In this document: in pieces, positions 21,761-33,056 of the stretch
Layout: each line of letters starts with the position of its first letter
Numbering within the stretch: position 1 is the first letter of the stretch
Assembly: GCA_964467035.1 (NCBI GenBank)
Contig: CAYXNX010000002.1
Location: 10,896-74,895 of the forward strand
From: Candidatus Woesearchaeota archaeon
Lineage (GTDB): Archaea > Nanobdellota > Nanobdellia > Pacearchaeales > GW2011-AR1
Reading direction: 5' to 3'
Length of the DNA stretch: 64,000 nucleotides
Made by a program: the position numbers and the translations under genes
Notes under the pieces: generated by a model
What the model saw: the letters and a program-made list of their open reading frames with translations, nothing else
Told to the model about the DNA's origin: nothing
The model's database searches: none

Positions 21761-22486
21761 ATGGTAAAAGGAATTAGATTTTATACAAAAAGAAATTTGA
21801 AAAAAAATTCAGTGCAAGAATTTTTTGGAAAGCTTTCAGTTACAAATTGGATTATTTTAATAAATGTTGTTGTTTTTGTAATTGCAAATATTTTGTTTTT
21901 GATTAATCAAGATTATATTAAGTTTTTTGCACTTAAGCCAAATTATGTTTTGCAAGGTAAGTTTTTATGGACCTTTATTACAAGTATGTTTTCTCATATA
22001 ATGTTGTTTCATCTTTTTGCAAATATGATTACTTTGATGTTTATTGGGGGTTTTGTTGAAAAATTGATTGGGAGTAAAAGGTATTTGAGATTTTATTTGT
22101 TTGCAGGAATTGTTGCATCTTTGTTGTTTGTTTTTTCAGCTTATTTTTTTGGAAGCACTAATACTGAATCATTGGGTTTTGGAATTTTTGGAAGTCCTGA
22201 AATTTTTGCATTGGGTGCTAGTGGGGCAATTTTTGGTTTAGCAGGTATTATTACTATGTTGATTCCAAAGTTAAGGGTTTTGGTATTTTTTATAATTCCT
22301 ATGAGAATGTGGGCTGCAATGGTTTTCTTTTTGGTTGTGTTTTGGGCTTTGTCTGCTTTTTATGGTTTGCCTATTGGAAACTCTGCGCATTTTGGAGGGT
22401 TTATTTGTGGTTTGGTTTATGGAGGATATTTGAGGAAAAAATATAGAAGAAAAGTTGCAAGATTAAATCAAATGGTAGGGGTATGA
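21761..22486 (+). CDS. Rhomboid family intramembrane serine protease
   Basis: GASGAIFGL (GxSG) and NSAHFGGF (catalytic His) in a multi-TM protein. Confidence 0.85.
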   Translation: MVKGIRFYTKRNLKKNSVQEFFGKLSVTNWIILINVVVFVIANILFLINQDYIKFFALKPNYVLQGKFLWTFITSMFSHIMLFHLFANMITLMFIGGFVEKLIGSKRYLRFYLFAGIVASLLFVFSAYFFGSTNTESLGFGIFGSPEIFALGASGAIFGLAGIITMLIPKLRVLVFFIIPMRMWAAMVFFLVVFWALSAFYGLPIGNSAHFGGFICGLVYGGYLRKKYRRKVARLNQMVGV

Positions 22487-23079
22487 AAGATAAATTAAAA
22501 ATTAAAAATTTGAAAAAAGAGTATAAAGAAGTTTGGAATTATTTGAAAAGTTCAAAATATTATCTTTTATTTACTGTTTGTTTATTTTTTGTTGTAGCAA
22601 TGTTGGTTTTTTTTGGCGTGCAAAGTCAAGAAGTAAATCAAAATGTTGAAAAACAACTTGAGCAAATTATTGAAAGATTTAAGGGGCTTGGAACTTTTGA
22701 GACAATTTTCTTGATTTTTTTTAATAATGTGCTGGCCTCTTTTTTAGGAATTGTCTTAGGAATTTTTTTTGGAATTATAACTTTGGGTTTTGTTATATCT
22801 AATGCTTATGTTATTGGTTATGTTGCAGAAAAAAGTGTTGATAGTGCAGGGCTTTCTATTTTGTGGAGTTTAGTTCCTCACGGAATTTTTGAATTACCTG
22901 CAGTGTTTATTTCTTTTGCATTGGGTATTAAATTAGGGATGTTTGTTTTTACTAAAAATCCTTGGGAGGAATTGAGGAAGGGATTTAATAGTTCTATGAA
23001 GGTTTTTGCTTATATTGTTTTTCCTTTGTTAGTTGTGGCTGCAATTATTGAAGGTATTTTGATTGGAATTATTTCTTGA
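22483..23079 (+). CDS. SpoIIM-like (DUF95) membrane protein
   Basis: PHGIFELPAVFISFALG motif, multiple TM helices, and a start that overlaps the rhomboid stop. Confidence 0.65.
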   Translation: MKDKLKIKNLKKEYKEVWNYLKSSKYYLLFTVCLFFVVAMLVFFGVQSQEVNQNVEKQLEQIIERFKGLGTFETIFLIFFNNVLASFLGIVLGIFFGIITLGFVISNAYVIGYVAEKSVDSAGLSILWSLVPHGIFELPAVFISFALGIKLGMFVFTKNPWEELRKGFNSSMKVFAYIVFPLLVVAAIIEGILIGIIS

Positions 23080-23093
23080 TTTTTTTAGAAATA

Positions 23094-23103
23094 TTTATAA
23101 ATA
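23094..23103 (+). promoter_or_regulatory. Candidate TATA box (TTTATAAATA) of surface-protein paralog A
   Basis: Lies ~35 nt upstream of ATG 23134. The identical sequence sits at the same distance from paralog B. Confidence 0.35.
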
Positions 23104-23133
23104 CTTTTTTATTTGATGGTTTATAAAATTAAA

Positions 23134-25482
23134 ATGAAAAAAAGAAGTGAACTTACAAAGGCTCAAAAGGGAATTTTGGGAGCTATTGTTCTTGTTATTG
23201 TATTGGGATTGGTTGGGGTTTTTTTGTTTAATGTTTTGATTGAAAAACCATTGCTTAGTTCTTCCAGTCCTTATTATATTTATCAAGGAGGAGGTAAGGA
23301 AATTACTTTGGATAGGGAGGATAACGTATCTACTCTTTTTATTAGAGATGAAGGAGATAATAGCGTATATAAGTATAATTTTGGGTATTGGGAGGACGAG
23401 AGGTTTACTATTACTAATGCATATCAAAATGACTCTGAACAGTATTATACGGAAAGGGATAATCGTAATGTAACTGCTTTGGTTTTGAATGAGTCTAAGG
23501 AGGGTGATGTTATTTATCCTCATCAAGAAGGACCTATTAGGGTGATAATCAGGGAAAAAAATGACAACAATATGACTATTAGGGTGGTTGATTTTTCAAG
23601 TGATGAAGAAATTGAGGTAAATGGGGGGGATTATTATTCTTCAAATTCTCTTGTTTTTATTAGTGGTATTAACCCTAGCAATATTGGTGATGAGGGGTTT
23701 TTGAAATATCCAATGACCTATACTAGGAAAGTAACTATTGATGGGGGGGAGTATAATATAAATTATAAAAGTAAAGATTTTTCTGATTTCGGCTATAATT
23801 TGTGGATTTCTAATGTTAATCAAGATTTTGAGGAACAACATTATGAATATTCGGATATTGGTAATAAAACTTATGCGCGTTTTAATATTTCTGAAGGAGA
23901 TGTTATTCATCCTGTTGAGGAAGGGTTGATTAGTTTAGAAGTTAGGGATAAAACAAAGGATTATGTTACTTTAAAGATTGTGGGGGTTGAAGGAAATGTG
24001 AATATTGATGAGAGGGATCCTTATGAGTTTATTGTAGAAGATAGAGGGAATAGGAATTTTATAAAAAATGGTGAGGAATATGGGATTGATTATAACTCTA
24101 ATGGTGGAGATAATGTTTTTGTGGATTTTTCAAATGGGACAAGAATGGGGGAATTTAATTTGGAGGAGGGAGATTCAGAATATTTGAGTGAGGGGAATTT
24201 TTTTCTTGAGATTATTAATAAAACTAATGATTATTTGATTGTGGGGGTAAAGGATAGGGATAGTGAGTGTGATAAAAATCAGGATTGTGATTTTCCTTAT
24301 GAAAAGTGTGTGGATAATGAATGTATTGATAGAGCTTCTTTTAAGGTTCTTGATGTGGATTATGATGATGTGGAAGTAGCATATAGTTTTCCATCTTCTT
24401 TGGGAGGTAGGATAAATGTATGGGCAAATGATGTTGTATATATTTATAATCCTAATGCTGAGGATGAAAAATGGTTTGAGAATGAGATTGGAGATTTGGG
24501 GGGAAATTTGACAGATGATTTTGAAATAGATGCTGGTTATTGGTCTCCTGTTTCAAGAGATGAAGAGTGTGGGGAGGGGGGTTGTATTTATGTTTGGGAT
24601 GGTAAAGAGGTTTATAGGGCTATTCCTGGAAAGGATGGAGGTAAATTTTATAATTATACAGATTCAAAAACCAGTGTTTTGGGAATTGAAGAAGATTTTG
24701 AGCCAGAATTTGGTTATTATGATTCTATAGAAGATAAGGTTGTTCTTGTAAGTGGAGATGAAGTATATCTTTTGAATAGCACTCATAATATAAGTATGGG
24801 ACTTGATGAATTGAGCTGTTTTGATTTTGATTATTTTAATACTACCTTGGGAGATTATGACCCAAATATTAGTGAAAATTATAATGGTTCTATTTGGGGA
24901 GGAGATGATTTTTATAATGATTATGAAGGGTGTGATGGTTTTTGTCCTGAAGGAATTTTTGGAAGTCCTAATGAGTGTGTTTTTGATTATACTGGCGGGG
25001 GAGGAGGGGAATGTGGAGATGGGATAATAGATGAAGATGAAGAATGTGATGGGGATAATTTGAATGATACAAGTTGTTTTGAATTAGGTTATGATGAAGG
25101 AAATCTTTCTTGTAATGATGATTGCACTTTTAATAGAAGTGACTGCGAATTTATTGGAGGTGAAGGAGAAGGTGAAGGAGAGGGAGAAGGAGAGGGTGAG
25201 GGAGAAGGTGAAGGAGAGGGAGAAGAAGAACAATCTTATTGGTGGATTCTTTATGTTGTTTTTGGTATTTTAATTATAGCTATAATTGCAGTAATTGTTT
25301 TTATAATCTTTTTTAGTAAAGGTGGGCAAGATGAAAATTCTGATAAAGATTCAGAATATCTTGTTAGTTCTTCTAATAAGTCAGGTAATTCTGGTGTTCA
25401 ATCTTCTAATTCTCAAAGAAAATCTTTATCGCAGAGTTCTTCTCAATCTCGAAATATTTCTGCAAAAAAAAGCACCAAATAA
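23134..25482 (+). CDS. Large surface/secreted protein, paralog A: N-terminal signal anchor, Cys-rich modules, GE-repeat stalk, C-terminal TM anchor, Ser-rich tail
   Basis: MKKRSELTKAQKGILGAIVLVIVLGLVGVFLF; CGDGIIDEDEECDGDNLNDTSC; (GE)n; EQSYWWILYVVFGILIIAIIAVIVFIIFF. Confidence 0.7.
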   Translation: MKKRSELTKAQKGILGAIVLVIVLGLVGVFLFNVLIEKPLLSSSSPYYIYQGGGKEITLDREDNVSTLFIRDEGDNSVYKYNFGYWEDERFTITNAYQNDSEQYYTERDNRNVTALVLNESKEGDVIYPHQEGPIRVIIREKNDNNMTIRVVDFSSDEEIEVNGGDYYSSNSLVFISGINPSNIGDEGFLKYPMTYTRKVTIDGGEYNINYKSKDFSDFGYNLWISNVNQDFEEQHYEYSDIGNKTYARFNISEGDVIHPVEEGLISLEVRDKTKDYVTLKIVGVEGNVNIDERDPYEFIVEDRGNRNFIKNGEEYGIDYNSNGGDNVFVDFSNGTRMGEFNLEEGDSEYLSEGNFFLEIINKTNDYLIVGVKDRDSECDKNQDCDFPYEKCVDNECIDRASFKVLDVDYDDVEVAYSFPSSLGGRINVWANDVVYIYNPNAEDEKWFENEIGDLGGNLTDDFEIDAGYWSPVSRDEECGEGGCIYVWDGKEVYRAIPGKDGGKFYNYTDSKTSVLGIEEDFEPEFGYYDSIEDKVVLVSGDEVYLLNSTHNISMGLDELSCFDFDYFNTTLGDYDPNISENYNGSIWGGDDFYNDYEGCDGFCPEGIFGSPNECVFDYTGGGGGECGDGIIDEDEECDGDNLNDTSCFELGYDEGNLSCNDDCTFNRSDCEFIGGEGEGEGEGEGEGEGEGEGEGEEEQSYWWILYVVFGILIIAIIAVIVFIIFFSKGGQDENSDKDSEYLVSSSNKSGNSGVQSSNSQRKSLSQSSSQSRNISAKKSTK

Positions 25483-25503
25483 GAATCAAGGAAAAAAATA
25501 AAA

Positions 25504-25689
25504 TTATTCTTTTAGGTTACTAATTCCAAGCAAAAGGAAAAGCAACCCAACCATTATAACAAACCAGATTATTCCTCCTTTTAGGAATTCTAGTGCTGCT
25601 GTTCCAAATCCCCATTGGTTTATTGCCCAAACATAAATTGGGGCTACCAAGAGGATTAATCCTATCAAAATTTCTAGCCACTTGTTCAT
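25504..25689 (-). CDS. Small two-TM membrane protein, hypothetical
   Basis: 61 aa with two clear hydrophobic helices. Confidence 0.4.
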   Translation of the reverse strand: MNKWLEILIGLILLVAPIYVWAINQWGFGTAALEFLKGGIIWFVIMVGLLFLLLGISNLKE

Positions 25690-25791
25690 ATTTTTTTAAT
25701 GTGTTTGGTGTTTAAAAAGTTATTTGTTTTTAATTTCAATGTTTTTTGAAGTTTTCAAATTATTTATAAACTAGAATTTTTATTATTTGGT

Positions 25792-26358
25792 ATGGGTGAA
25801 AAATATTTGGTTTTTAATTTGAATGAAGATAAAACAAATTTGTTAGCTGATGTTATTAGTAATAAAACTAGTAAAAAGATTTTGAATTATCTTGCTGAAC
25901 AAGAAGCATGTGAAACAGAAATTGCAAGGGATTTGAATGTTCCAGCAAATACTGTTAATTATAATATTAAAAAACTTTTAGAAGCGGGTTTGATTGAGAA
26001 AACTAAGAACTTTTTTTGGAGTGTTAAGGGGAAGAAAATTGTTAAGTATAAAATTGCAAATAAAAGGATTTTAATTTTGCCAAAGAGTTCTAAGGTTTTG
26101 GGAATTTTGTCTGCTTTTTTAGCTACAGGGATTGTTGCTTTTTTGATTAAAATTTTTATTCCTGTAAAATCTAGGGCTGAAGAAAATTTTCATATGTTAA
26201 AAGAGAATTCTGTGGAATATGGGGGTTCTGGAGTTTCAGAAGTAGCAAGTAAGGCTTCGGAATTGATTGTGAATACTCCTGGAACTTGGGTGTGGTTTTT
26301 ACTGGGGGGAACTTTTGCTTTATTGATTTTTATGATATTAAATTGGAGGAAGCTATAA
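25792..26358 (+). CDS. ArsR-type HTH protein with C-terminal TM segments
   Basis: KKILNYLAEQEACETEIARDLNVPANTVNYNIKKLLEAGLIE, followed by hydrophobic helices. Confidence 0.65.
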   Translation: MGEKYLVFNLNEDKTNLLADVISNKTSKKILNYLAEQEACETEIARDLNVPANTVNYNIKKLLEAGLIEKTKNFFWSVKGKKIVKYKIANKRILILPKSSKVLGILSAFLATGIVAFLIKIFIPVKSRAEENFHMLKENSVEYGGSGVSEVASKASELIVNTPGTWVWFLLGGTFALLIFMILNWRKL

Positions 26359-27068
26359 TGGAAAAAACTTGGGTTTTTGTTATTTTGCTTGTGGCATTTC
26401 TTTCAATAGGAGCTTATTTAATTGTGAATAATCCTATTGAAAAACAAATAATCAATGTTAATGGAAATGCTGAAGTAAAATCTATGCCTGATTTTGTAAG
26501 TGTTTATGTTTCAATTGAAACTCTTGAAGATAGTGCTGAAGACTCTAAAAATCAGAATGCTGAAATTTCAGAAGATGTAATGCAAGTTTTGAGAGAATTA
26601 AACTTTAAAGAAGACGAAATTGAGACAATTGAATGGAGAGTTTATGAAGAGTATGATTGGAGTGAGAACAGGAGAGAATCTAAAGGATTTAAAACTTCCC
26701 ATATTTTGAAAGTTGAAGTTGAAGAATATGATTTTGTTGGTAGTGTTGTGGATAGGGTTGTTGATGCTGGAGCTGTTATTAGTTCTTTGAATTTTGAGAT
26801 TTCTGAAGAGACAGAGAGTGAATTGAAAAATCAAGCTATTGAAAAAGCGACAATAGATGCTGAAGAGAAAGCACAGGCTGTTGCATCTGGAACAGGTCAG
26901 AAATTAGGTAAACTTGTAAGCATTAATGTTGATGATTATTACTATCATCCTTATGCTTTATATGATTCCAGTAGTTCTGTCAAATCAGTTCAAGAAACTA
27001 CTACACAAATTTCTCCTAGAGAATTAACTGTTAATGCAAGGGTTAGAGCTGTTTACAATATCAGATAG
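26358..27068 (+). CDS. SIMPL / DUF541 domain secreted protein
   Basis: The ATG overlaps the previous stop (TAATG). A signal anchor is followed by VSVYVSIETLEDSAEDSKNQNAEI...AIEKATIDAEEKAQAVA, typical of SIMPL. Confidence 0.7.
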   Translation: MEKTWVFVILLVAFLSIGAYLIVNNPIEKQIINVNGNAEVKSMPDFVSVYVSIETLEDSAEDSKNQNAEISEDVMQVLRELNFKEDEIETIEWRVYEEYDWSENRRESKGFKTSHILKVEVEEYDFVGSVVDRVVDAGAVISSLNFEISEETESELKNQAIEKATIDAEEKAQAVASGTGQKLGKLVSINVDDYYYHPYALYDSSSSVKSVQETTTQISPRELTVNARVRAVYNIR

Positions 27069-27100
27069 TTTTTTATTTTTTATTTTCTTTTTTGGAAATA

Positions 27101-27110
27101 TTTATAAATA
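27101..27110 (+). promoter_or_regulatory. Candidate TATA box (TTTATAAATA) of surface-protein paralog B
   Basis: Same sequence and spacing as 23094-23103, inside the conserved 169-bp block 27095-27263. Confidence 0.35.
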
Positions 27111-27140
27111 CTTTTTTATTTAATAGTTTATAAAATTAAA

Positions 27141-29282
27141 ATGAAAAAAAGAAGTGAACTTACAAGTGCTCAAAAGGGAATTTTGGGAGCTATTGTTCTT
27201 GTTATTGTATTGGGGTTGGTTGGGGTTTTTTTGTTTAATGTTTTGATTGAAAAACCATTGCTTTCTCCTGAAAAAATTTTGGCTGGTCAAACTGAAGATA
27301 TTCGGTTGGATTTGGGAGAATCAAAAAATTTATCAATTAGTGGAAAAAATTATACTTTGAAGTATACTGATTCTGACTTTAATAATAATTGGGATTCTTC
27401 TGATGAAAATGCAATTTTTGTTTTGTGGGATGAAGAGGAAGTAGAGACTGTTTATTTTAATCAGGGTGATGATTTAGAATTTGAGGAAAATTTACCATTT
27501 AAGATTTTTGTTAAATCTGTTGTTCATAATACTTATACAGATAGGGTTACTTTGGAAATTACAAGTGGGGTATTTATTGAACCAGGTAGTTCTGAAAAAT
27601 TTGAAGTTGAAAAATCAAGTGAAGAAGCTTTGTTTTTTGGTGATGAAATCAAGTATTGGGTTTCACTTCCTTCTTCAGGCGATGAATTGAGGTTTGTTGA
27701 GTGGAGCGAATCTGGGGGAAAGATTACTAGTTCTAAGGAATTTCCGAAGTTTGAAAAAGGTTGTTTGAGTGTTAGAGAGGAGGGTTGGCCTATGGCTGTT
27801 TATTTGACTGAAGTTAACGATGAAAGTATTGAATTAGAAGTTTATAATAATGATTATGAAATTGAGGAATATTGTGAAGATGATAGAAATTGTTTTGATG
27901 AAAAATGTTTAGCTGGTTTTTGTGTTGGTAGTTCTAATGTAGATGAAAGTAAATTTCATGATATGGATAAAAATAGGGATTACAATATTGAACTTTCTGA
28001 ATTATCAAGGATTATTCAATTTCATAATTCTGAAGGGTATCATTGCCAAACTGGAACTGAAGAGGGTTATGCTCCTGGAGTTAATGATGGTAAGCAGGAG
28101 TGTGGAACTCATGATGCTGATTTAAATGGGGATTGGAAGATTAATGGAACAGAATTAAATAGGGTTATTGAATTTTTTGATGAGGGCTATTATCCTTCGG
28201 AGGAAACTAAAGATGGTTTTGAAATTGGAGAAGGAAATGATTGCGGAACTAATGATGAGTGTTCAGGCGGAGGTGTTTGTTTAAACGGTGTTTGTGTTCA
28301 AGGAGTTAATTTTGATTGTAGTTCTGATGATGTTTGTGGAGATAACGAGGTTTGTCAAAATGGGCACTGTATACTCCTTAGTTGTCCTTATACATTTGGG
28401 AGTGAATATCATAAAGCTGATTTGAATGGGGATTGGAAAATCGATGTTGGGGAATTGTTAAGGATTATTCAATTTCATAATTCTGAAGGGTATCATTGTA
28501 ATCCTGCATCTGAAGATGGTTATGCTCCAGGAGTTGATGATGATAGGCATATGTGTGGAACTCATGATGCTGATTTAGATGGGGATTGGAAAATTGATGG
28601 GGAAGAATTAAATAGGATTAGGGAGTTTAATAAGAATGGATTTAAGTATTGTCCTGAAGAAGATACTACTGATGGTTATTGTATAAGAGGGGGTGGAGAA
28701 GAAGGTGAAGGAGAAGGTGAACCCCCTAGTCCTGGAGGAGGTCCTTCTGGAGGAGGTCCTTCTGGAGAAGAAGATGATTGCGGAGATGGGATAGTAGATG
28801 AAGATGAAGAATGTGATGGGGATAATTTGAGTGGTAAAAGTTGTCTTGATTGGGGTTATGATAAGGGAACTCTTTCTTGTGATGAGGATTGTAATTTTGA
28901 TAGAAGGGGTTGTGGATATGAAGGAAGTGAAGGAGAAGGTGAAGGAGAAGAAGGAGAAGGGGAAGGAGAAGGGGAAGGAGAAGAACAATCTTATTGGTGG
29001 ATTCTTTATGTTGTTTTTGGTATTTTAATTATAGCTATAATTGCAGTAATTGTTTTTATAATCTTTTTTAGTAAAAAGGGTAAGGAGGGTTTTGGAAAAG
29101 GAAAATTATCTAAAGATAAACAAGATTTGGGTAAAAATAAATCAAATCAAAATGTTTCTTCAAAATCTTTGAAAGACCTGCCCAAAAATTCTGAAAAAAA
29201 ATCCTCTAAAAAAATTGTTAAAAAATCAAGGGATAAAGATTATAAAAACATAGGTCCAAAAATGAAGGATAATTTGGATTAA
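27141..29282 (+). CDS. Large surface/secreted protein, paralog B: signal anchor, four dockerin/EF-hand-like Ca-binding loops, Cys-rich modules, GE stalk, C-terminal TM anchor, Lys-rich tail
   Basis: The N- and C-terminal cassettes are near-identical to paralog A. Also DLNGDWKINGTELNRVIEFF-type loops and CGDGIVDEDEECDGDNLSGKSC. Confidence 0.7.
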   Translation: MKKRSELTSAQKGILGAIVLVIVLGLVGVFLFNVLIEKPLLSPEKILAGQTEDIRLDLGESKNLSISGKNYTLKYTDSDFNNNWDSSDENAIFVLWDEEEVETVYFNQGDDLEFEENLPFKIFVKSVVHNTYTDRVTLEITSGVFIEPGSSEKFEVEKSSEEALFFGDEIKYWVSLPSSGDELRFVEWSESGGKITSSKEFPKFEKGCLSVREEGWPMAVYLTEVNDESIELEVYNNDYEIEEYCEDDRNCFDEKCLAGFCVGSSNVDESKFHDMDKNRDYNIELSELSRIIQFHNSEGYHCQTGTEEGYAPGVNDGKQECGTHDADLNGDWKINGTELNRVIEFFDEGYYPSEETKDGFEIGEGNDCGTNDECSGGGVCLNGVCVQGVNFDCSSDDVCGDNEVCQNGHCILLSCPYTFGSEYHKADLNGDWKIDVGELLRIIQFHNSEGYHCNPASEDGYAPGVDDDRHMCGTHDADLDGDWKIDGEELNRIREFNKNGFKYCPEEDTTDGYCIRGGGEEGEGEGEPPSPGGGPSGGGPSGEEDDCGDGIVDEDEECDGDNLSGKSCLDWGYDKGTLSCDEDCNFDRRGCGYEGSEGEGEGEEGEGEGEGEGEEQSYWWILYVVFGILIIAIIAVIVFIIFFSKKGKEGFGKGKLSKDKQDLGKNKSNQNVSSKSLKDLPKNSEKKSSKKIVKKSRDKDYKNIGPKMKDNLD

Positions 29283-29322
29283 AAATAGTAAGATTAAAAA
29301 AAGGTTGTTTCTAATTCTATTG

Positions 29323-30393
29323 ATGTTATCTAAAAAACAAATTGACGAAGTTAAGGAACATTTGGAAAGAGCTCAAAATCCAGTGATTTTTTTTGATAAT
29401 GATTGCGATGGTTTGATGAGTTTTATTATGTTGAGAAAATATCTTGATAGGGGAAAAGGAGTTCCTGTTAAAAGTTCTTTTGAATCTAGATATGCTCATA
29501 AAGTTGAAGAACTAAATGGAGATTATGTTTTTATTTTAGATAGACCAAATGTTTCTAAAGGATTTATTGAAGATGTTGTTTCTAAAGGGATTCCTATTGT
29601 GTGGATTGACCATCATGATATGAAGCCTGAAGAGTTGATTATTTCAGAGGATGAAAAAGTTTTGTTGAAAGATGTTGGAAAAGAATTGGTGAGTTATTAT
29701 AATCCTGGAAAAAATGCAGAACCTGTGAGTTATTTGGTGTATCATATTTTGAATAATAGAAATTTTCAGTGGATTTCTATGGTGGGATGTATTGCAGATA
29801 ATTTTGTTCCAGAGTTTGCCGAGGAGTTTTCTAAAAGTTACCCAGAACTTTGGAAAAGTGGAACTAAAGAAGCATTTGAGATTTTTTATGAAAGTGATTT
29901 GGGGAGAATCATTAACTTGTTGGATTTTTCATTAAAAGATAGGACTAGAAATGTTGTTGCAATGATGAATTTTTTAGTTAAAATTAATTCTCCTCTTGAA
30001 TTGTTGAAAGAAGATTCTAAAAATTCTTTGATACACAAACGTTATTCTCAAGTTGAAGCTGTTTATTCTAAATTAATTGAAAGGGCTAAAAATGTTGCGA
30101 GAAGGTCTAGTAAGGTTGTTTTTTTTGAATATGGGGGAAATTTGAGCTTGAGTGCGAATATTGCAAATGAGCTTTCTTATAGATTTCCTGGAAAAGTGAT
30201 TATTGTTGCATATGTCCGAGGTGATGGGGCAAATGTTTCTGTTAGGGGGAGGATTGATGTTAGGAAGATTGCATTGGAGGCAATTAAAGAAATTTCTGGA
30301 GCGCAAGGAGGGGGGCATGAAAATGCTGTTGGAGCGAAGATGAGTGTAAGCGATTTGGAAAAGTTTAGAGATTTTTTTATTAAAAGTGTTTAG
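29323..30393 (+). CDS. DHH/DHHA1 phosphoesterase, RecJ/Cdc45(GAN)-like
   Basis: DNDCDGLMS (motif I), VWIDHHD (DHH) and GGGHENAVGA (DHHA1 GGGH). Confidence 0.75.
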   Translation: MLSKKQIDEVKEHLERAQNPVIFFDNDCDGLMSFIMLRKYLDRGKGVPVKSSFESRYAHKVEELNGDYVFILDRPNVSKGFIEDVVSKGIPIVWIDHHDMKPEELIISEDEKVLLKDVGKELVSYYNPGKNAEPVSYLVYHILNNRNFQWISMVGCIADNFVPEFAEEFSKSYPELWKSGTKEAFEIFYESDLGRIINLLDFSLKDRTRNVVAMMNFLVKINSPLELLKEDSKNSLIHKRYSQVEAVYSKLIERAKNVARRSSKVVFFEYGGNLSLSANIANELSYRFPGKVIIVAYVRGDGANVSVRGRIDVRKIALEAIKEISGAQGGGHENAVGAKMSVSDLEKFRDFFIKSV

Positions 30394-30427
30394 GAAATTT
30401 TATAAATTCTTTTTTACTTAATTTAAG

Positions 30428-31829: not shown

Positions 31830-31991
31830 ATTCTTCATAAATTGTTGAAGATTTTGAGAAAAGAAAAATATATAAACGTTTTTTTTTTCAATAGGGTATG
31901 AAAATTTTAAAAAATTGGGTGAGAGTTAAACTAAGGGTTTTTCACTCATTTGATAAAATTTAAGTTATATCAACTGAAAGGAGGTGATGAA

Positions 31992-33056
31992 ATGAAAGAT
32001 ACAAAAAAGAAGAATTTGATTGTTGTTGTTTCTGTTTTGGCGATTGTGTTGGTGGCTTTGGGTTTGACGTATTTTTTTAATTTTGGTCCGCAGTTGAGTC
32101 CAGGTTCTTCAAATCCAGGTGGTTGGAATTATTGTAAGAATAATCCTTGTAATGCTGGAGAGGGGGATTGTGATGGAGATGGAGAGTGTGCTGAAGGAGA
32201 GTGTGTTAATAATGTTGGGGGAGTTTATGGATTTTCTAAATGGGCAGATGTTTGTGAATTGAAGAGAGAAATACCTTGTGGAAATTATGGAGATGTTGAT
32301 GGCGATGGTTGGGTTACAACTAGGGATTCACAGTTAATTCTTAATTTCTTATCAGATGAAGATTTAATTAATAGAGTAAATGCAGATGTTAGTGGAGATG
32401 GCGAAGTAAATGGAGTCGATGCATGGTTTATTAGAGAATATCTTAAGGATGCAAGATCTCCTTTGCCTGTTTGCGGGGGTGAAGAGTCTGATTTGAGAAA
32501 GGTTTTAGGCCTCGGAGATTCTTTTACTCAGGATGGTAAATCTTTTTGGGTGGATCTTATTGGAGAAAATACAGCAAGGATAAATGGCGAGACTATTAAT
32601 GAAGGATCTTCAAAAATAGTTGATGGTGTGAAAATAAAACTTGTTAAGGTTTATTGGAATAACTCTAAAGAAAAATCAGTGCTTCTAGAGGTTAGTGAAA
32701 GTGAAAGTTCCGGAGATTCTGGAGGTTCTGGAGGTTCTGAAGAAGTGACTTATGAAGGAGTTTTGGAGATGTTGGGCCAATGTAATTGGGCATCAATAGC
32801 TATTGGGACAAATGATTCAGCTACTTCTTGTAATGAAGCTTGTGCTCCTCACAAATGTATTGGGGGGATGGCTCTTCTTCAATATGAATTTGCAACCGGA
32901 GAAAATATAGATCAAATGGAACTACTAACTTATCCAATTTCTTGTGGAGACAATTTGGTTCAATTTAATTCAGATTTACAAGAGGGATTTAGTTCAACAA
33001 TTCCTACAACTCTTGAAACCGATGTACTTTGTCATTGTTGTTCAGCCCCTAACTAA
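31992..33056 (+). CDS. Secreted/anchored protein with a canonical dockerin (two EF-hand-like repeats) and Cys-rich regions
   Basis: GGAGGTGA lies 5 nt upstream of the ATG. Signal anchor LIVVVSVLAIVLVALGL. Dockerin reads DVDGDGWVTTRDSQLILNFL ... DVSGDGEVNGVDAWFIREYL. Confidence 0.7.
   Translation: MKDTKKKNLIVVVSVLAIVLVALGLTYFFNFGPQLSPGSSNPGGWNYCKNNPCNAGEGDCDGDGECAEGECVNNVGGVYGFSKWADVCELKREIPCGNYGDVDGDGWVTTRDSQLILNFLSDEDLINRVNADVSGDGEVNGVDAWFIREYLKDARSPLPVCGGEESDLRKVLGLGDSFTQDGKSFWVDLIGENTARINGETINEGSSKIVDGVKIKLVKVYWNNSKEKSVLLEVSESESSGDSGGSGGSEEVTYEGVLEMLGQCNWASIAIGTNDSATSCNEACAPHKCIGGMALLQYEFATGENIDQMELLTYPISCGDNLVQFNSDLQEGFSSTIPTTLETDVLCHCCSAPN

Follow-up and report, generated by a model that had tools for sequence, protein, structure and literature searches.

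In the genome of a DPANN archaeon assigned to Candidatus Pacearchaeota, two genes for large surface proteins stand 4 kb apart on the same strand, and their two ends, promoter included, are almost identical in nucleotide sequence around interiors that are far less alike. The genes, here designated gene A (23134..25482, plus strand, 782 amino acids) and gene B (27141..29282, plus strand, 713 amino acids) after the list of open reading frames (ORFs), lie in a window of 64,000 nucleotides (nt), that is, the whole stretch of DNA analysed, taken from contig CAYXNX010000002.1 (C2) of a metagenome-assembled draft genome (G000; 762 kb, 30% GC, 19 contigs, 87% complete). Coordinates without a contig prefix refer to this window. 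Sequence comparison makes it rather probable that A and B are old paralogs in which a recent ectopic gene conversion in short patches overwrote the promoter and first helix, as well as the last helix. An initial annotation, derived from the letters of the window, had proposed a pair of surface-protein paralogs, and A and B are indeed real paralogs that code for membrane-anchored, largely extracellular proteins. A life attached to other cells is assumed for DPANN archaea, whose surface proteins have hardly been characterised at all.

The first of the two shared blocks covers the 5' ends of both genes. Its copy in A (23081..23256, plus strand) comprises the intergenic promoter, a short leader and codons 1-41, and its copy in B (27088..27263, plus strand) contains the corresponding promoter, with the TATA sequence at 27101-27110, the leader and codons 1-41. 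Aligned without gaps at an offset of 4007, the copies are identical at 170/176 nt, the mismatches falling, in A coordinates, at 23087, 23115, 23118, 23159, 23160 and 23208; within the slightly shorter block proposed initially (23088-23256, about five mismatches in 169 nt), exactly five are counted. The block starts right after the stop codon of a SpoIIM-family gene and ends abruptly after the residues EKPLL. It includes the element TTTATAAATA, composed of a transcription factor B recognition element (BRE) and TATA box, at 23094-23103 in A and 27101-27110 in B, and codons 1-41 specify 12 charged residues and a 24-residue hydrophobic helix (23170-23241 in A) followed by EKPLL. The promoter element is the same in A and B at 27/27 nt, and no other site in the genome comes closer than four mismatches. 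Two additional in-frame starts, TTG at 23113 and ATG at 23116, are found inside the block in A only and are lost in B through G>A changes at 23115 and 23118; directly after the ATG start codon, both genes carry a run of seven adenines (A7).

The second block encodes the C-terminal anchor, consisting of EEQSYWW, a membrane helix and SK, and is located at 25224..25320 in A and 28979..29075 in B (plus strand, offset 3755). Here, 97/97 nt are identical, which adds one nucleotide to the 96-nt block recognized initially (25225-25320), and the encoded peptide is EEQSYWWILYVVFGILIIAIIAVIVFIIFFSK; not one change is found at its 19.3 synonymous sites. For both blocks the identity is far beyond chance (BLAST within the genome, E = 1e-78 and 1e-103). 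Each block is present exactly twice in the 762-kb genome, as DNA and tblastn searches recover A and B only, and degenerate patterns back-translated from anchor and signal region brought up no further copy among 185,579 species-representative genomes or JGI metagenome contigs. The initial description of a family of such proteins therefore narrows to the only two genes of the genome that carry these ends.

The evidence that carries the interpretation comes from comparing the ends with the homologous DNA between them. Ahead of the anchor, both genes encode a cysteine-rich CGDG...C module (25009..25152 in A and 28776..28919 in B, plus strand) and a Gly-Glu stalk, which in A spans 25153..25223 (plus strand) and contains GGWGAR repeats; the CGDGI(I/V)DEDEECDGDN signature and the stalk had already been noted as shared parts, and both are present in the two genes. 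The B module is 83% identical to the A module in nucleotides and ~60% in amino acids, with 24/144 nt mismatched, a rate of synonymous substitution (dS) of 0.265 and a rate of nonsynonymous substitution (dN) of 0.174. In contrast, the N-terminal coding block is mismatched at 3/123 nt (dS 0.036) and the anchor block at 0/97 nt (dS 0). Taken together, the coding ends hold 3/220 mismatches against 24/144 in the module (Fisher p = 5e-8), and the excess identity extends to third codon positions, of which 2/73 are changed in the ends and 10/48 in the module (p = 0.0016). At the level of identity of the module, a perfect run of 97 nt has a probability of ~2e-8. Ordinary divergence at synonymous sites had been named in advance as the mark of a simple old duplication; the values obtained, 0.036 and 0 against 0.265, depart from it, and ends that are more alike than the DNA between them, synonymous sites included, fit gene conversion and not a simple old duplication.

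The borders of the anchor island are equally informative. On its 5' side lies the partly diverged Gly-Glu stalk, with the edge of the island falling within the stalk of A, and on its 3' side the tails are unrelated. With diverged or unrelated sequence on either side, the island looks like a conversion patch and not like the product of a crossover. Gene conversion takes at least two homologous copies in one genome, of which there are two, and leaves a tract with sharp borders and excess identity that includes synonymous sites, as is found here. The ends of A and B thus appear as islands of recent identity inside otherwise diverged genes and are best explained by short-patch gene conversion.

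Old paralogy is suggested by the architecture of the two proteins, which are assembled from the same parts in the same order: an N-terminal signal-anchor helix, beta-rich modules, a Cys knot, a central domain, the CGDG module, the Gly-Glu stalk, the SYWW helix and a tail. A motif scan places three beta-rich modules in A (approximately residues 42-375) and two in B (approximately residues 42-238); the modules of A end in the motif (E)GD..x..EG.I.(L/I)E(I/V)..K..DY(V/L).(L/V), and the form common to A and B is (E)GD...EG.I.(L/I)E(I/V)...D.(V/I).L.(I/V). The Cys knot is encoded at 24262-24330 in A and 27870-27929 in B (plus strand). In shuffle tests, residues 42-400 of A and 42-266 of B gave a colinear Smith-Waterman alignment (z = 4.9, empirical p ~0.004, ~22% amino acid identity) in which modules 2-3 and the Cys knot of A pair with modules 1-2 and the Cys knot of B, which makes homology between these N-terminal halves of the ectodomains likely, though not proven. 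The central domains (residues 401-620 of A and 267-540 of B) showed no similarity in the same kind of test (z = -0.7). The initial view of the middles as unrelated and not alignable therefore holds for the central domains and has to be given up for the N-terminal modules and the Cys knot. The cytoplasmic tails, on the other hand, differ as had been described, one being rich in Ser and the other in Lys: the tail of A (25321..25482 including the stop codon, plus strand) has 18 Ser and 6 Lys among 53 amino acids, that of B (29076..29282 including the stop codon, plus strand) has 9 Ser and 21 Lys among 68, and a comparison of the two revealed no significant similarity (z = 0-1.8).

The following course of events would account for this pattern. 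An N-terminal signal-anchor and a C-terminal helix would hold each protein in the membrane, so that the large ectodomain faces outward and the long tail lies inside the cell. The ectodomains would have diverged long ago, and the central domain would have been replaced in at least one of the genes. Colinear and weakly similar N-terminal halves speak for old paralogs that retained the homology needed to start conversion, and more recently homologous recombination would have brought about an interlocus gene conversion in which one gene donated two patches to the other, one of ~176 nt that takes in the promoter, the leader and the initial 41 codons, and one of ~97-105 nt (end of the Gly-Glu stalk and C-terminal helix). 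A common constraint on both genes in the helices and the promoter is probably the reason why conversion survives in these parts alone. As possible consequences, the shared promoter would allow for co-expression, and the identical membrane parts would direct both proteins to the same insertion route or membrane partner while carrying two different binding domains, an orphan beta-rich domain facing outward in A and putative calcium-binding dockerin-like modules in B. Considering these dockerin- and EF-hand-like modules together with the DPANN lifestyle, a role in contact with a host or partner cell, as suggested initially, is plausible.

Several observations weigh against this explanation. The blocks hold only ~47 synonymous sites, and the contrast in dS, although significant, is thus based on few sites. 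A profile-profile comparison of the beta-modules of A and B is weak and not convincing (hhalign probability of 8.7%), so that the support for their homology comes from the Smith-Waterman shuffle test and the shared end-motif. Finally, no orthologs of A or B were recovered in 40 relatives, in 185,579 species-representative genomes or in JGI metagenome contigs.

The alternative that survives best, although it is considered unlikely, is the replacement of a cassette between fixed handles. Here, a gene or its end parts would have been recently duplicated into the other position and the interior would then have been replaced by a diverged homolog or by foreign DNA, with the ends serving as homology arms, so that the ends would be young rather than overwritten. 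The arrangement of the locus across the genus lends weight to this possibility. The order SpoIIM-[slot 1]-HTH-SIMPL-[slot 2]-DHH, preceded in the genus by a rhomboid gene, is kept in 12 genomes of the genus, with A occupying slot 1 and B occupying slot 2. Different large surface genes fill the slots in nearly every genome of the genus; the proteins found in both slots of other genomes are unrelated, and in genome G002 both slots are empty. A pair of sister species, with genomes G001 and G007 and flanking genes that are 83-88% identical in nucleotides, is especially instructive: at slot 2 the promoter and the first ~26 codons are kept (87% over 125 nt, a level equal to that of the flanking orthologs), and beyond these codons the genes, coding for 447 and 706 amino acids, are unrelated (L028:2960-3260 and L029:3193-3493). 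This pattern indicates that turnover of the ectodomain behind a retained promoter and signal region occurs in the lineage. Furthermore, the centre of B is closer to proteins labelled as Hydrogenedentes (at most 54% identity) than to its nearest archaeal relative (32-37%), and the central domain of A recurs behind other N-termini in the slot-2 protein of genome G006 and in the metagenomic protein P0001. Against cassette replacement, the identical C-terminal helix is followed by unrelated tails and adjoins a CGDG module that is 17% diverged, so that a single recent duplication would need further events; no donor or silent copy is present in the genome; and the N-terminal halves are homologous but very old (~22% amino acid identity), which fits a long residence as paralogs. 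The initial proposal of cassette exchange or gene conversion is accordingly sustained in its second part by the contrast in dS, and not in the sense of exchange with a reservoir, for which silent copies, a recombinase in the neighbourhood, meaningful inverted repeats or the mismatch pattern of a diversity-generating retroelement (DGR) would be expected and are lacking.

A broader and more speculative version of events, regarded as improbable, sees the end blocks as the fixed handles of a genus-wide swapping of ectodomains in two hot-spot slots that flank the helix-turn-helix (HTH) regulator and the SIMPL protein. Whole outward-facing domains would be exchanged while the module for expression and membrane insertion stays unchanged. 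Some of the domains would be borrowed from bacteria such as Hydrogenedentes, and the swapping would retarget attachment to different partner cells and complement the DGR found on this contig.

Two further explanations are very unlikely. According to the first, the duplication is old and the ends are held in place by selection at the nucleotide level, for example by a regulatory RNA, a signal for translation or targeting of the mRNA, or an operator for the HTH regulator. The 5' block does include a sequence-constrained promoter, whose parts resemble the generic BRE/TATA/T-rich consensus found at other genes, e.g. at 30389-30422, and a membrane-tethered HTH regulator is encoded between A and B. 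However, all other promoters differ from the 27-nt element at four positions or more, so that the consensus alone does not lead to a match of 27/27, and the identity, which runs through 73 codons and is broken by a single synonymous change, stops precisely where the hydrophobic segments do. Moreover, the RNA predicted for the blocks folds no better than shuffled sequences (z = 0.27, 0.34 and 0.68), and with no unusual structure predicted for the blocks, their nucleotide identity is not accounted for by selection for an RNA fold.

The second of these explanations, equally doubtful, is an artefact of assembly, either in the form of a chimeric contig or of strain variants of one hypervariable locus laid in tandem. 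The draft was assembled from a metagenome into 19 contigs at 87% completeness, an exact repeat of 97 nt could mislead an assembly with short k, and a contig break interrupts the locus in the nearest relative (G008). Nevertheless, the order SpoIIM-slot-HTH-SIMPL-slot-DHH matches that of 12 related genomes, the copies are separated by unique conserved genes, six differences mark the two 5' blocks as distinct sequences, and a wrong path through both repeats would swap the interiors rather than create the repeats. Programmed variation, that is, phase or antigenic variation or a DGR with the blocks as recognition or recombination sites, is the weakest candidate and very unlikely; in its favour are the A7 tract in both genes and an investment of the genome in surface diversification, as seen in the complete DGR ~50 kb downstream on the same contig, and against it are a neighbourhood free of recombinase or invertase genes, inverted repeats that are short, AT-rich and imperfect, a genome without silent cassettes or partial copies of the ends or interiors, mismatches between A and B that are not adenine-specific, a DGR with a target gene of its own, and an A7 run that is ordinary for a Met-Lys-Lys start at 30% GC.

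In line with this, an invertible element or shufflon was rejected for lack of credible inverted repeats, and A and B were rejected as targets of a DGR, given that their mismatches read A>G, G>A, G>A, A>G, G>T and A>G. The DGR itself is located at C2:90832-93993, ~17-19 kb beyond the end of the window. It consists of a reverse transcriptase ORF (92287-93993; RVT_1, 60.8 bits), a template repeat (93675-93798) and a variable repeat (91608-91731) at the 3' end of a target gene of 302 amino acids; all mismatches between the two repeats (13/13) fall on adenines of the template, and neither repeat matches A or B.

Gene A matches no Pfam or NCBIfam family, apart from sub-threshold compositional matches to its anchor and tail, and its central domain (approximately residues 400-620) is an orphan that is rich in beta-strands. 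A library search with the A ectodomain was dominated by the 47-residue cysteine-rich repeat of the CGDG module. Outside this module, one relative of A was identified among 1.84 billion representative proteins, namely P0001, which matches the C-terminal half of A at 44% identity with an EKSYWW anchor included, and whose N-terminus is a different one that carries a LamG domain; the match of the G006 slot-2 protein to the central domain, likewise behind a different N-terminus, is weaker. With a single homolog as input, AlphaFold2 returned an unusable model of A with a mean predicted local distance difference test (pLDDT) score of 35. Protein A is also absent from the matches in a collection of 5.8 billion proteins in which protein B is present, and A may lack a gene call in the source annotation.

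The centre of B is composed of two dockerin/EF-hand-like double units (27925-28175 and 28378-28628, plus strand) that are an internal duplication with 78% nucleotide identity. Between them lies a cysteine-rich DUF7107 segment (28242-28385, plus strand; 31 bits), and a linker of Gly, Pro and Glu follows between the double units and the CGDG module. Four loops of the form D-x-(D/N)-G-D-W-x-I-x-x-x-E-L are spread over the two double units. For the central fragment, the Pfam scores of Dockerin_1 (24.4 bits) and EF-hand_6 (26 bits) exceed the cut-offs of 22.9 and 25, respectively; on the full protein, Dockerin_1 drops to 17.8 bits and thus under its cut-off. AlphaFold2 models the second double unit with pLDDT values of 80-88, and the sole PDB matches retrieved with Foldseek are dockerins, with weak scores (E 0.8-3.4, template modelling (TM) scores 0.47-0.55). 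In comparison to type I dockerins, the half-units of B carry a conserved Cys and an (S)EDGYAPG motif that are not part of cellulosomal dockerins. No cohesin was found near B or near the gene at 31950-33056, whose product has a similar N-terminus and contains a Dockerin_1 module of the canonical kind that exceeds the cut-off with 38.9 bits. The double units of B (27924-28685) follow the pattern HxADxxGDWxI..ELLR(I/V)IQF(H/Y)NxxGYHC...EDGYAPG, and their best matches among Hydrogenedentes-labelled bacterial proteins are C-terminal modules of many such proteins, placed after EGEGE linkers. Judging from these similarities, the dockerin-like module of B may have been transferred between domains of life.

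The 47-residue CGDG unit of A belongs to a widespread family of tandem repeats, with 2381 matching proteins in the representative library, many of which contain long tandem arrays. The signature CGDGxxxxxEECDGxN is present, and the modules reach 16.2 (A) and 10.2 bits against Pfam DUF4215, for which the cut-off is 27; the DUF4215 model leaves the second half of the unit (L..xSC..LGYD.G.LSC...C.F....C) uncovered, and no NCBIfam match was obtained for the module. A repeat of the kind CG(D/N)G...(E/D)CD is presumably the one termed Myxococcus cysteine-rich repeat (TIGR02232). Elsewhere, such cysteine-rich repeat families form tandem arrays, whereas in A and B the unit occurs as a single copy in the position of a membrane-proximal spacer.

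With respect to processing, the anchors do not follow the signature of archaeosortase substrates of the PGF-CTERM kind, as EEQSYWW, the helix and SK are succeeded by tails of 53 and 68 residues, and no NCBIfam sorting signal was matched. A class III (pilin-type) signal at the N-terminus was rejected by inspection; other proteins with a like N-terminus are without the KG|ILGA site, and this site is taken to deviate from the usual class III pattern as used by FlaFind. Most slot proteins begin with basic residues and a long helix, followed by LSP. The motif (E)KPxLSP or GPQLSP after the first helix is found in B (27249-27269), in the protein at 31950-33056, at C4:2895-5270 and C10:25852-29217 in the same genome, and at loci L021, L022, L028 and L029, and LSP within ~16 residues past the first helix was observed five times against 0.83 expected. 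It may represent a processing or hinge motif. A gene for a rhomboid protease has a conserved position two genes ahead of slot 1.

The neighbouring genes form the fixed backbone of the locus. A SpoIIM-family gene (22483..23079, plus strand; Pfam, 83.2 bits) is the left border of slot 1, and a DHH/DHHA1 phosphoesterase gene (29305..30393, plus strand; Pfam) is the right border of slot 2, both borders being defined by synteny. Between the two variable slots lies the HTH-SIMPL pair (25792..27068, plus strand), which is composed of a membrane-tethered ArsR/HTH_20-type regulator (25792-26358, plus strand; Pfam HTH_20, 41.7 bits) and a SIMPL/DUF541 protein (26355-27068, plus strand; Pfam SIMPL, 146.8 bits). 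Together with an ORF on the minus strand that codes for 61 amino acids with two helices, these are the three genes that separate A from B, and the ORFs around A and B include genes for TFE, a rhomboid, SpoIIM, HTH, SIMPL and DHH proteins and a scramblase-like gene. In the nearest relative (G008), where the locus is split between contigs, the protein in slot 1 contains repeats like those of B; the contig ends at the locus share just a 14-nt word, which is uninformative.

Similar arrangements are found elsewhere in the genome. On contig C1, a second adjacent pair of surface genes (C1:108831-110855 and 111005-114397, minus strand) has the signal-peptide end in common (87% over 135 nt), as well as a C-terminal third of 85% over 1042 nt with an identical anchor, and the middles differ; a third gene on this contig (121094-122047) has a related anchor. 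The common ends around a different middle in this pair indicate that recombination among such genes recurs in the organism. Another gene (C10:16721-17308, minus strand) encodes a protein of 195 amino acids with an N-terminal helix, a small cysteine-rich ectodomain, an acidic stretch, an ETNYWLW helix and a long tail rich in Lys and Pro. The combination of an acidic stalk, an aromatic belt, a helix and a long tail thus appears to be a common way of anchoring proteins in this organism.

The locus of A and B presents surface genes as mosaics of different ages, as read from sequence statistics, in which the membrane-embedded ends and the promoter would be homogenised while the outward-facing domains diverge or are replaced. 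In addition, the SpoIIM-slot-HTH-SIMPL-slot-DHH context offers a defined place to seek determinants of host specificity in Pacearchaeota. The value of the locus lies in this documentation and in candidate genes from an uncharacterised archaeal protein family, rather than in a new principle.

Among known systems, the closest analogy is provided by babA and babB of Helicobacter pylori. These paralogs and babC code for outer-membrane adhesins, and intragenomic conversion between their loci gives rise to chimeras, with exchange points ~60-240 bp from the start codon (PMC4552749); concerted evolution of the bab genes is credited there to Pride and Blaser (2002). The Bab proteins are bacterial beta-barrels of the outer membrane, whereas A and B are archaeal and helix-anchored. 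The conserved ends of the bab genes measure hundreds of bp and are coupled to phase variation through CT repeats, in contrast to tracts of ~100-180 nt in A and B, which include the promoter, lack phase-variable repeats and are known from one genome. A further parallel is the lpl cluster of Staphylococcus aureus (Tsuru and Kobayashi, 2008; PMC2568036), in which tandem paralogs of host-interaction lipoprotein-like proteins have a highly conserved nucleotide stretch within the ORF that is a site of homologous recombination and shuffles the variable parts. The conserved stretch of lpl is central with variable parts flanking it and occurs in many copies per cluster and in many genomes, while A and B are two copies with terminal conserved stretches and two unrelated genes between them. 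The MASP family of Trypanosoma cruzi (PMC2691823) shares the principle with A and B. It is eukaryotic, comprises hundreds to thousands of genes and has a cleaved signal peptide and a glycosylphosphatidylinositol (GPI) signal, in contrast to two genes whose transmembrane helices may be retained. The Vlp and Vsa lipoprotein families of Mycoplasma are comparable to MASP. Gene conversion among adhesin paralogs is already well known in bacteria, and A and B would be a clean archaeal example.

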